Origin: Myxococcales bacterium
GTDB lineage: Bacteria > Myxococcota_A > Bradymonadia > Bradymonadales > Bradymonadaceae
Direction of reading: 5' to 3'
Assembly: GCA_007135085.1 (NCBI GenBank)
Contig: SLJM01000154.1
Span: 293 to 64,292 of the forward strand
Length of the DNA: 64,000 nucleotides
The notes under the pieces were generated by a model that saw only the letters and a list, made by a program, of their open reading frames with translations, was not told where the DNA came from and made no database searches. The stretch's first letter is position 1; each line of letters begins with the position of its first letter. Position numbers and translations under genes: made by a program. This document shows, in pieces, positions 28,215 through 30,320 of this stretch.

Positions 28215-30320
28215 CTATGAAGCGCGGACCGTGATTCGGCCCAGCGGTTGGATGGTCAGCGCCGGATCGAGTTCTTGATAGGCCAATACGACCACCTCCG
28301 GAAACTCAATAGCCACCAGCCTTTTGAGGTATCGACGCACCTTCTGATCGGTGAGCAGAATCGGAACCCGCCCTTTGTCGAGATCACGGCTGACCTGCTT
28401 TCGCACGGCATTGAGGATCTCTCTGGTCACCTCCGGAGAGAGGGTCAAAAAGCTGCCCGTCTCGGTGATCTTGACCGCCGACTGAATGGTCTCTTCGATC
28501 TCCCGTTCCATCAGATAGACCAGAACGCTGCCATCGCTGCTGGAATATTTATTGGTGATATAGGCGCGAAGCCCGGTGCGAACCTCTTCGGTGAGTTTGA
28601 CCGGGTTTTTCTCGGTTCTGGCCCGATCGGCGAGGATTTCCAGAATGGTCGGTAGATTCCGAAGTGAGATCTTCTCCTCTGCCAGACGACGCAGCACCTC
28701 TGTGACCTCCTGCAGGCCCAGCAATTTGGGCACCACCTCCTGGACGGCCGCCGGATAGGGGCCTTCCAACTGATCGAGCATCCCCCGCACGGACTGGAGA
28801 TTTACAAATTGATGAGCCTGCTCCTGCAGGGCCGCCGTCATTTCGAGCACGATATACTCCGCCCCATCCCAGATGGCATAGCCCGCCTCCTCTACCACGG
28901 CCCGATCGTCGGCTGAGACCCAGGCGGCGTCGCCACCGGTGATGGGGTGGGTGGCCGGCTCGGCGGTCACGTCAAAGACCTCCAGCCCTCTTGGACCGTC
29001 GTTGACCAGGACGCAGCCATCGGGGACCGTGGCCTGACGCACCGGTACTTCGTCGAGCTGGATGAGCAGTTGGTCCCCACCGCAGGCCCCGCTGTCGGCG
29101 CGGACCCGAACTCCGGGAATCTTGACCCCGAGCTCGAAGAAGATCCCCTCTCGCATGGAGGGGATCCTCTCCCGAAGCCACTGAGCCCGCTCTCCTTCGA
29201 TGGACGCGCTCAGTCCAGCTCCCAGATCGAGGGTCAGGGGCGTGACCGCCGGAATGAGAGCCCGCGCCTGACGGGCCCCCTCTTCGGCCTCTCGCTCGAT
29301 CTCCTCGACCGCTTCTTCTTCCTCAGCGTCCAGACGAGTAAGCCCCGACTTCTGACTCCTCATGACGCCGATGGCCACGATCCCCACAATCGTGGACAGC
29401 AATAAAAACGGAACCAGAGGTAACCCGGGAATGATGGCCAAAATCAAAAGCAGGCTTCCCGCAATAGCCAACGCCTTTGGTTGGGCCAAGATCTGAGAGA
29501 CGATATCGCCGCCCAGATGAGATCCGTCGTCCTCGGAGGCCACCCGGGTGACGATAATCCCCGCCGTGGTGGCGATGAGAAGAGCGGGAATTTGACTGAC
29601 AAGGCCGTCGCCGATGGTGAGCAGCGTATAGGTCTGAGCCGCCTCGCCGGCGCCCATGCCCATCTGCATAACGCCAATGATGATGCCGGCCACGATATTG
29701 ATGGACGTAATGATAATCCCGGCGATGGCGTCGCCTTTGACGAATTTCATGGCCCCGTCCATCGCCCCGTAGAGCTGACTCTCCTTCTGAACCAGGGCTC
29801 GACGCCGCCGGGCTTCGTCCAGGTCGAAGGCACCGGCGCGCAGATCGGCGTCGATAGACATCTGCTTGCCCGGCATGGCGTCCAACGTAAAACGGGCGGC
29901 CACCTCGGAGACCCGCTCCGACCCCTTGGCGATGACCAGAAATTGAATCAGGGTCAGGATCAAAAAGATCACCGCGCCGACCACATAATTTCCCTGGACC
30001 ACGAAATTACCAAAGGAGTCGATGACCTCACCGGCGTCGGCCTGCAATAAGATCAGCCGCGTCGACGAAATATTGAGGGCCAGCCGAAATAAAGTGGTGA
30101 TCAGCAAGATCGACGGAAAAGAAGCAATTTGCAGAGCGTTGGGGATATATAGACTGACCATCAGCAGCGTGACGGCCACCGTGATATTAAGGGTCAGCAA
30201 TACATCCAGGGCCAACGTGGGCAGGGGGATGATCATCATCCCGATGATGCCGATGACCAGCGCCGCCAATAAGACATCGCTAAATCGTCTCAACCAACCG
30301 CTTATATCCAGACCCACCAT
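28215..30320 (-). CDS. sctV: type III secretion export-gate protein, SctV (InvA/YscV/LcrD) type of the FHIPEP family
   Basis: 701 aa, full length. [117 protein letters not shown], and a complete cytoplasmic C-domain. GAGGG RBS. Confidence 0.9.
   Translation of the reverse strand: [701 protein letters not shown]

Follow-up and report, generated by a model that had tools for sequence, protein, structure and literature searches.

A solitary sctV gene in a bradymonad genome: export gate of a scattered type III secretion system that apparently lacks a needle, with a putative shared promoter

Why does a gene for SctV, the export gate of type III secretion systems (T3SS), stand by itself in a bacterial genome? 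The question was raised by the window analysed here, a stretch of 64,000 nucleotides (nt) from contig SLJM01000154.1 of assembly GCA_007135085.1 (contig C274 below). It comes from a metagenome-assembled genome (MAG) of the Bradymonadales (Lujinxingiaceae-like; 5.19 Mb in 509 contigs, 93% complete). A preliminary description, made from the letters of the window alone, had left three readings for the gene: a dispersed or needle-less T3SS, an export gate recruited to another machine, or a relic. The first reading turned out to be correct, since three further loci carried the remaining sct genes and neither a secretin nor a needle nor an SctD model reached its cutoff; in outline, it is already published. 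The relic did not stand, and recruitment was only partly a rival. The gene probably encodes the functional SctV gate of a scattered, apparently secretin-less and needle-less T3SS of the Myxococcus type (T3SS*) in a predatory member of the Bradymonadales, and we hold this with good confidence.

28215-30320, minus strand: sctV, FHIPEP export gate of a non-flagellar T3SS, 701 amino acids (aa), assigned by TIGR01399, Pfam FHIPEP and tree

The open reading frame (ORF) at 28215-30320 was uninterrupted over 701 codons from an ATG start. The Pfam FHIPEP match covered model positions 1-655 of 657, and all of the motifs quoted in the preliminary description were present, in agreement with its claim of a full-length product. 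The protein scored above the cutoff of the NCBIfam equivalog for SctV (TIGR01399; 791 bits, cutoff 692) and below that of the equivalog for FlhA (TIGR01398; 660 bits, cutoff 772). The nearest solved structure was the full-length Ysc-type SctV 7alw (617 bits, aligned over residues 9-698), while any FlhA structure reached at most 391 bits. The hydrophobic segments lay within residues 10-323, and the near-invariant charged residues of the FHIPEP core were kept (R136, R143, D147, K152, D157, D159, K192, K195, D197, D238 and R259). A profile search of the whole genome detected one FHIPEP gene, namely sctV on contig C274.

Phylogenetic trees of FHIPEP proteins were constructed with FastTree (161 proteins) and IQ-TREE (74 proteins). 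The split between non-flagellar SctV and flagellar FlhA received a support of 100 in both trees, including 100 in the Shimodaira-Hasegawa-like approximate likelihood ratio test (SH-aLRT) of IQ-TREE, and the FlhA side included second copies from flagellated bradymonad relatives. The window protein fell in the SctV clade, within a Bradymonadia clade (SH-aLRT 93) adjoining other Myxococcota (Archangium, Polyangiaceae). The injectisome clade of Chlamydiota, Proteobacteria and the Planctomycetota-Verrucomicrobiota-Chlamydiota (PVC) group was separate from it with a support of 99-100. This placement and the equivalog scores confirmed the earlier view that the protein is SctV-like rather than FlhA-like. 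An identity as FlhA was rejected on the FlhA model score, the position in the SctV clade, and the lack of rod/hook and FliF matches in the genome. As a separate observation, shortened FHIPEP proteins of about 600-680 aa occurred in other families of the class (G020:C898, G027:C34, G021:C92 and G023:C5; loci L117 and L118). They matched model positions 1-306/404 and 454-655, the linker and the first cytoplasmic subdomain being apparently deleted or replaced.

The isolation of sctV from other sct genes might suggest a relic, left unused after the loss of a flagellum or an injectisome. The gene is instead strongly constrained. Its nonsynonymous divergence (dN) of 0.12-0.21 was the lowest among seven genes of the locus and comparable to that of rpoD, with dN/dS of approximately 0.09-0.16 at saturated synonymous divergence (dS). 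Its identity across the class was 59-83%, compared with 59-74% for rpoD, and synteny was kept. A relic was thus rejected, because dN was as low as that of rpoD, the charged residues were intact in a full-length frame and the synteny was conserved class-wide. All of the partner genes were also present, and orthologues have been reported to be upregulated in predation; this explanation is hardly credible. The window gene is an intact, constrained, single-copy SctV of a non-flagellar T3SS.

The rest of the machine was found elsewhere in the genome. Profile searches of the 64.6-kb contig C274 gave no match to the FliP, YscJ/FliF, FliMN_C, FliI/YscN or rod/hook families, bearing out the claim that no other sct or fli gene lies on the stretch; on this point as on the others, the preliminary description of the gene proved accurate. 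The whole-genome inventory detected sct genes at three further loci, with no flagellum and no second sctV. The genes sctR and sctS were located on the 3.9-kb contig C76 and sctT-sctU on C492, which completed the export apparatus SctRSTUV together with sctV on C274. An operon on C339 had the order sctI?(149 aa)-sctJ-295 aa-sctL-sctN-sctO-138 aa-258 aa, and on C422 a 230-aa ORF came before the gene for a 498-aa SctQ. SctN exceeded the cutoff of TIGR02546 (615 bits, cutoff 604.75), and the top-scoring family of SctJ, SctL, SctO and SctQ was in each case a T3SS model; the SctJ ring and the cytoplasmic SctN/L/O/Q were thus all found. The 295-aa protein at the position of SctK belonged to no recognisable family. 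SctR, S, T, U, V, N and J were each encoded exactly once. No FliF-type ring protein was found in the genome, the sole ring protein being a 272-aa SctJ type. Rod/hook proteins (Flg_bbr_C) were detected neither in this genome nor in its genus, compared with 4-5 in each flagellated relative. The relatives with rod/hook proteins and FliF also carried a second FliP/FHIPEP/FliI set.

The scattering had to be separated from the fragmentation of the MAG, which speaks against a dispersed system. A reference relative of a different genus (G012; 99% complete, 30 contigs) was used for comparison. There, a fliO-like gene and sctR-S-T-U formed one operon (Pfam), one contig held sctV and sctJ-N at a distance of 640 kb, and two others held sctRSTU and sctQ. 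Persicimonas caeni, whose genome is complete, has sctV at 0.85 Mb but sctN only at 5.99 Mb (PMC11509652 Table S4). By these two genomes, the dispersal is real and not an assembly artefact. The FliO-like gene differed in orientation between the MAG and G012: it was on the strand opposite to sctR, and divergent from it, in the MAG (C76:1431-1886, plus strand), and shared the strand of sctR in G012 (L072:10572-11012, minus strand).

The comparison of gene arrangements was extended to other lineages. In Archangium, sctN-O-...-Q-fliO-R-S-T-U lay within 10 kb of sctV, and 8 of 10 classical injectisome loci had at least one other sct gene within this distance; of the remaining two, the Puniceicoccales locus had no sct match within 10 kb, and the Chthoniobacterales locus was not checked for one. 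No sct gene was found within 10 kb of sctV in Bradymonadia, Polyangiaceae and several other Myxococcota MAGs. Because sctV is solitary in Bradymonadia and Polyangiaceae and clustered in Archangium and most classical loci, its solitary position is, judging from these gene orders, a trait of the lineage.

The searches for an extracellular conduit gave negative results. None of 31 genomes had a protein above the cutoff of the SctC secretin model TIGR02516, with control genomes also lacking SctC and the sensitivity of the search thus unvalidated; the secretin matches in the genomes were to the generic C-terminal domain, in proteins of other systems. The needle model SctF (PF09392) was over its cutoff in 0 of the 31 genomes, in a search without positive control for proteins that are small and divergent. 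The SctD model likewise gave 0 of 31, again without positive control, and only generic FHA N-termini were found in this genome. We infer the absence of needle, SctD and secretin from these hidden Markov model (HMM) searches, and their lack of a positive control counts against a needle-less system. A further point on that side is the 149-aa protein heading the sctJ operon, which matched SctI weakly (PF17001, E = 0.004); some axial component may exist because of this ORF. These observations are also what a complete injectisome would leave if its diverged needle, SctD ring and outer-membrane channel, serving direct injection into prey, had been missed by the profiles. The generic secretin-domain proteins could then belong to it, and two proteins of the regulon described below (647 and 426 aa) could be axial or translocon-like. 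Such an injectisome is nevertheless improbable, as the SctC, SctF and SctD models stayed below cutoff in 31 of 31 genomes, one of them 99% complete, no candidate secretin or small needle-like gene was found in the four conserved operons, and the sister system of Myxococcus has been described experimentally as being without these parts.

The needle-less T3SS* of M. xanthus (mxan_2434-2464) is without secretin, needle and translocon. Where the predator touches its prey, this system is recruited alongside the Kil Tad-like pilus, and prey lysis requires it. In Bradymonabacteria (Bradymonas), YscRSTUV genes at scattered locus tags have been reported to be upregulated in predation, and a needle-less T3SS* has already been proposed for bradymonads. 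Kil-like systems have also been reported in the Bradymonadales. The genome studied here contained a Kil/Tad-like locus (C413:14185-20073, L289) encoding a 472-aa CpaC-type secretin, a 641-aa FHA-fused TadA/CpaF (T2SSE) ATPase, TadB, TadC and an FHA protein. A short secretin and an FHA-fused ATPase, among other features, are published hallmarks of the Kil predation pilus of Myxococcus. Reviews state that Kil and T3SS* co-occur in Cystobacterineae only, a claim contradicted by this genome, which has both a Kil-like locus and T3SS*.

The presence of a Kil-like locus bears on the recruitment of SctV, apart from the other Sct proteins, to a machine such as Kil/Tad or another exporter. The solitary gene with its own promoter and terminator would suit this explanation, as would its FHA and kinase flanks beside an FHA-rich Kil system. 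The promoter class of sctV is, on the other hand, common to the sctJ-N, sctR-U and sctQ units, and SctR, S, T, U, V, N and J are single-copy proteins, each of which needs the others for the known complex. Separation is moreover a property of the lineage and not of sctV, because the remaining sct genes are equally dispersed. We regard recruitment away from the Sct machine as very unlikely. It is only partly a rival to a scattered T3SS*, because the T3SS* of Myxococcus works with a Kil/Tad pilus and this genome has a Kil-like locus as well.

How, then, could four distant units be expressed together? The regions upstream of sctV and of the other units were inspected for regulatory signals.

30445-30406, minus strand: intrinsic terminator of the upstream gene, a 16-bp stem GACCGGCTCCC-GATTT-GGGGGCCGGTC followed by T8
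30371-30406, minus strand: two-box promoter element of sctV, TACGCAAAATC (30406-30396) ... CTCGACAATAGATC (30384-30371), 39.0 bits

The upstream gene, on the same strand as sctV, ends at 30494 and is followed by the terminator. The automated terminator scan did not report it; reading of the sequence and folding confirmed the structure, at -28.9 kcal/mol (z = -5.7, with 0 of 200 shuffles folding as well), and upheld the terminator noted in the preliminary description. It is predicted to insulate sctV from upstream read-through, and the architecture suggests a monocistronic gene. The two-box element came next, ending 50 nt before the ATG, with a σ28-like -10 box. Alignment of the sctV upstream regions of relatives gave the conserved form (T)ACGCAAAA-N16-GA(C/T)AA(C/T)A(G/A), and the form common to the four sct units was TACGCAAAATC-N12-GTCGATAATAGAT. 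The strict form occurred 17 times in the genome, versus approximately 0.1 expected from base composition, and one of these copies preceded the sctI-J-L-N-O operon, 84 nt from its first gene. The elements had a single orientation, a spacer of 16±1 between two long boxes, and a distance of 35-60 nt to the start codon; in the aligned sctV upstream regions of relatives, the element ended 40-90 nt before it.

A weight matrix of the two boxes detected 28 sites of at least 24 bits in the genome, compared with 0 in a reversed-sequence null, and 36 versus 3 at a threshold of at least 20 bits. Correctly oriented sites preceded all four units, with scores of 39.0 (sctV), 38.6 (sctI-J operon), 27.2 (sctR) and 20.6 bits (230-aa ORF and sctQ); the chance of all four carrying a site was approximately 2e-7. 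The four T3SS loci of G012 contained exactly four sites of at least 18 bits, each upstream of the orthologous unit. In both genomes the element lay between the FliO-like gene and sctR, so that sctR-U would be independent of transcription of the FliO-like gene. A housekeeping promoter of the lineage was rejected as the nature of the element, since TTGACA was enriched 6.2-fold upstream of 1769 genes, compared with 1.1-fold for CGATAA and 1.6-fold for CGCAAA. It is thus very likely, judged from sequence, that a specialised promoter is shared by the four T3SS* units.

The -10 consensus GTCGATAA matched the σ28 consensus GCCGATAA at seven of eight positions; the full published σ28 consensus is TAAAGTTT-n11-GCCGATAA. 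The -10 box before sctV was GCCGAAAAC in G008, G011 and G014, a form also found before the sctI/J operon of G017, and in one Bradymonadaceae MAG it was GCCGATAT, an exact σ28 match. A candidate sigma factor was found in the genome.

C99:9739-10560 (locus L297), minus strand: FliA/WhiG-like group-3 sigma factor, the only short group-3-type sigma factor found in the genome

The best families of this protein were FliA/WhiG, FliA, WhiG and σ28. Homologues sat immediately upstream of sctI-sctJ-...-sctN, in the same orientation, in both genomes of a sister family, G029 (L296:6674-7279) and G025 (L285:11674-12264). Canonical FliA was above cutoff in 9 of 31 genomes, consisting of seven flagellated relatives as well as G017 and G027, which had no rod/hook matches; none was found in the genome studied here. 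On balance, it is somewhat more probable than otherwise that the promoter of the four units is read by the FliA-like sigma factor of C99, as its sequence and the -10 boxes suggest. Among the papers searched, none linked FliA or σ28 to a myxobacterial or bradymonad T3SS*.

Several observations weigh against this assignment. The -35 box ACGCAAAA, in its best register CAAAATTC, matched TAAAGTTT at only five of eight positions, with an n10 spacer compared with n11. The C99 sigma factor stayed, at 112 bits, under its family cutoff of 189.6, no FlgM-like gene was seen beside it, and its distant homologues (Sandaracinus/Polyangia and two metagenome contigs) had no T3SS genes nearby. The element was not detected by matrix or pattern at the T3SS loci of G018, G022, G025, the non-flagellar copy of G010, and Archangium, which may reflect divergence or real absence. 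The regulon is also not T3SS-specific, because recA, ssb, comF-like and transposase-like genes carry the element, and recA, ssb and comF-like genes are atypical σ28 targets. These points would fit an element read by another alternative sigma factor, for example of the extracytoplasmic function (ECF) type, or by a transcription factor with a weak σ70 promoter, with the FliA-like sigma factor being unrelated. Against such a promoter are the near-complete match of the -10 box and its variants in other genera, the two long boxes with their fixed spacer and single orientation near start codons, and the position of a C99-sigma homologue beside the sctJ operon in G029 and G025. An origin other than σ28 is therefore an unlikely explanation, though one to be reckoned with.

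Other genes were also preceded by the element. Besides the sct units, the regulon held RecA, single-stranded DNA-binding protein (SSB), ComF-like, RQC plus helix-turn-helix (HTH), phospholipase D (PLD)-like lipoprotein, 23S-IVP-family, transposase-like and uncharacterised proteins. The element-bearing genes with assigned coordinates were as follows.

C92:7391-8440: RecA
C205:8932-9387: SSB
C154:19242-19994: ComF-like protein, a double zinc ribbon with a phosphoribosyltransferase
C253:2520-3296: RQC+HTH protein
C290:13878-15821, plus strand: 647-aa protein with the top-scoring element (40.8 bits), no signal peptide and no Pfam domain
C74:436-1716, plus strand: 426-aa Gly/Ala-rich protein, no signal peptide and no Pfam domain
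C69:937-2673, minus strand: PLD-like lipoprotein

At recA and ssb, the element lay approximately 200 nt upstream. By its membership, the regulon would link T3SS* to functions in DNA recombination or uptake. The 647-aa protein of C290, the 426-aa protein of C74 and the PLD-like protein of C69 are candidates for T3SS* cargo or accessory parts. A family of 307-318 aa (MTKPRRHIAGQ...), with no Pfam match, was present in five copies on C104, C273, C323, C445 and C34, each preceded by an element of 35-37 bits, and is probably a mobile-element gene.

The following mechanism can be proposed. The system would consist of four scattered units: sctV alone, sctI?-sctJ-x-sctL-sctN-sctO, sctR-S-T-U, and the 230-aa gene with sctQ. 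The terminator of the upstream gene, a promoter of its own 50 nt before the ATG and a convergent downstream gene would let sctV be transcribed alone. The FliA-like sigma factor would co-activate the four units through the shared promoter, possibly during predation. SctRSTU, SctV, SctJ and SctN/L/O/Q would then assemble as an inner-membrane export machine without needle or secretin and, by analogy with M. xanthus, would deliver lytic cargo at prey contacts together with the Kil pilus. The role in predation is one that we infer for bradymonads, with the published upregulation as indirect support. As a tentative proposal, held at somewhat less than even confidence, this flagellum-less predator kept the FliA-like sigma factor of the flagellar ancestor of the T3SS and uses it to tie together a four-locus T3SS*. 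The same regulon of approximately 30 promoters would drive recA, ssb, the comF-like gene, the PLD-like lipoprotein and the signal-peptide-less proteins, the last being candidate substrates.

The genes around sctV were also compared with those of relatives.

27408-28202, plus strand: convergent lipoprotein gene, 264 aa, lipobox LLMGC and one N-terminal hydrophobic segment, no Pfam match
26238-27236, minus strand: double-FHA, double zinc-ribbon protein (Pfam FHA twice, DZR, Yop-YscD_cpl), no transmembrane segment
30494-31771, minus strand: Cys/Asp-rich putative lipoprotein directly upstream of sctV, 425 aa, no Pfam match
32088-33332, minus strand: Hanks-type Ser/Thr kinase (Pfam Pkinase, E = 1.3e-48), syntenic in Bradymonadia at 52-70% identity
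33383-34999, minus strand: RpoD-type sigma factor, 538 aa (NF004208 RpoD, 582 bits, cutoff 555), syntenic

The closest relatives of SctV and its flanks were Bradymonadales, namely 'Myxococcales bacterium CSSed' MAGs (77-83% identity), Lujinxingia vulgaris, L. litoralis, Persicimonas, Microvenator and Bradymonadaceae. The order rpoD - Ser/Thr kinase - Cys-rich lipoprotein - sctV - convergent lipoprotein - double-FHA/zinc-ribbon - hydrolase was syntenic in Lujinxingia, Microvenator, Bradymonadaceae and other close relatives. The convergent lipoprotein gene, whose stop was confirmed to lie 12 nt from that of sctV, kept its position across Bradymonadia at 29-49% identity. The 425-aa putative lipoprotein evolves fast, with 27-32% identity to its positional homologues compared with 60-80% for its neighbours. 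The RpoD-type sigma factor beside sctV is of the housekeeping type and is not a candidate sigma factor for T3SS*. A second RpoD-type sigma factor was seen at C234:7000-7611, inside a 663-aa open frame. Two further genes of the window were syntenic in relatives: a bactofilin with a fused C-terminal SAP domain (24040-24759, plus strand) and a 1191-aa protein (19522-23097, minus strand) whose match to 'bacterial virulence factor lipase N-terminal' was weak.

The double-FHA neighbour was considered as SctD and rejected despite its Yop-YscD_cpl match, as it had no transmembrane segment and its top NCBIfam matches were the generic FhaB-like and TagH-like FHA models. It is syntenic in Bradymonadia and can be regarded as a candidate phospho-signalling partner of sctV. 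T3SS* may receive a phospho-signal from the conserved FHA protein and kinase beside sctV, as has been suggested for the FHA-rich Kil system, the basis here being synteny. A universal partnership of FHA proteins or kinases with sctV found no support outside Bradymonadia: L020 had a kinase near sctV, but kinases are abundant in the phylum, and the FHA matches in Archangium were weak and on the opposite strand. A second kinase, with a PEGA domain, was located directly upstream of the sctI-J-N operon on C339 and was kept in G012, not in G017 or G018.

What the gene is can thus be explained by published biology. What is new is the class-wide four-locus layout, together with a σ28-like promoter common to the loci and a FliA-like sigma factor; these are testable and, as far as we searched, unreported. 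Scattering of this kind is old and spans the class, each part being single-copy and strongly constrained. Detection tools that require clusters would therefore under-count such systems, and the scattered T3SS* of bradymonads would be missed by them. The shared promoter class offers a testable mechanism for the co-expression of machine genes located megabases apart. The resemblance to σ28, together with a FliA-like sigma factor in the absence of flagella, points to regulatory continuity from the flagellum to the earliest non-flagellar T3SS. The regulon of approximately 30 members forms a short list in which the prey-lysing cargo of T3SS* may be sought. If the proposal is true, the flagellar class-3 hierarchy would have left a regulatory fossil in a non-flagellar T3SS lineage that is among the earliest to branch. 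The proposal would also provide a sequence handle on the prey-lysis effectors and explain why cluster-based surveys reported Kil and T3SS* together in Cystobacterineae only.

Among known systems, the classical SctV proteins (YscV/LcrD, InvA, EscV, SsaV) resemble the window protein in fold family, length, FHIPEP loop and charged residues, 7alw being the nearest solved structure. They form a separate clade, and their genes lie within 10 kb of other sct genes in 8 of 10 loci, whereas sctV is solitary here. The promoter resembles those of the flagellar σ28 class-3 genes and of the chlamydial σ28 regulon in its two boxes, in its long -10 box (G)(T/C)CGA(T/C)AA compared with GCCGATAA, and in the presence of a FliA/WhiG-like group-3 sigma factor; the target is likewise a type III export machine descended from the flagellum. 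It differs from the flagellar case in the lack of a flagellum and of a FlgM-like neighbour, in the -35 box (ACGCAAAA compared with TAAAGTTT), in a sigma factor below its family cutoff, and in recA, ssb, comF-like and transposase-like targets. The closest experimentally described counterpart is the T3SS* of M. xanthus, which shares non-flagellar SctRSTUV, the SctJ ring and SctN/L/O/Q, with no dedicated secretin, needle or translocon detected (for secretin and needle, here in HMM searches lacking a positive control), as well as a contact-dependent predator with a Kil system and SctV neighbours within the Myxococcota in the trees. In Myxococcus and Archangium, the genes form one large cluster with sctV approximately 3 kb from sctU, in contrast to the four distant units with sctV alone found here; the σ28-like element was not found in the Archangium cluster, and the SctV identity was approximately 48-50%. 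The papers on cultured Bradymonabacteria give KEGG-type gene matches and describe no four-unit layout, solitary sctV, shared promoter or sigma factor. Their published T3SS loci are likewise scattered and upregulated in predation, and Bradymonas sediminis FA350, Persicimonas caeni and Lujinxingia possess the same system, with an SctV that is 69-74% identical and lies in the same neighbourhood.

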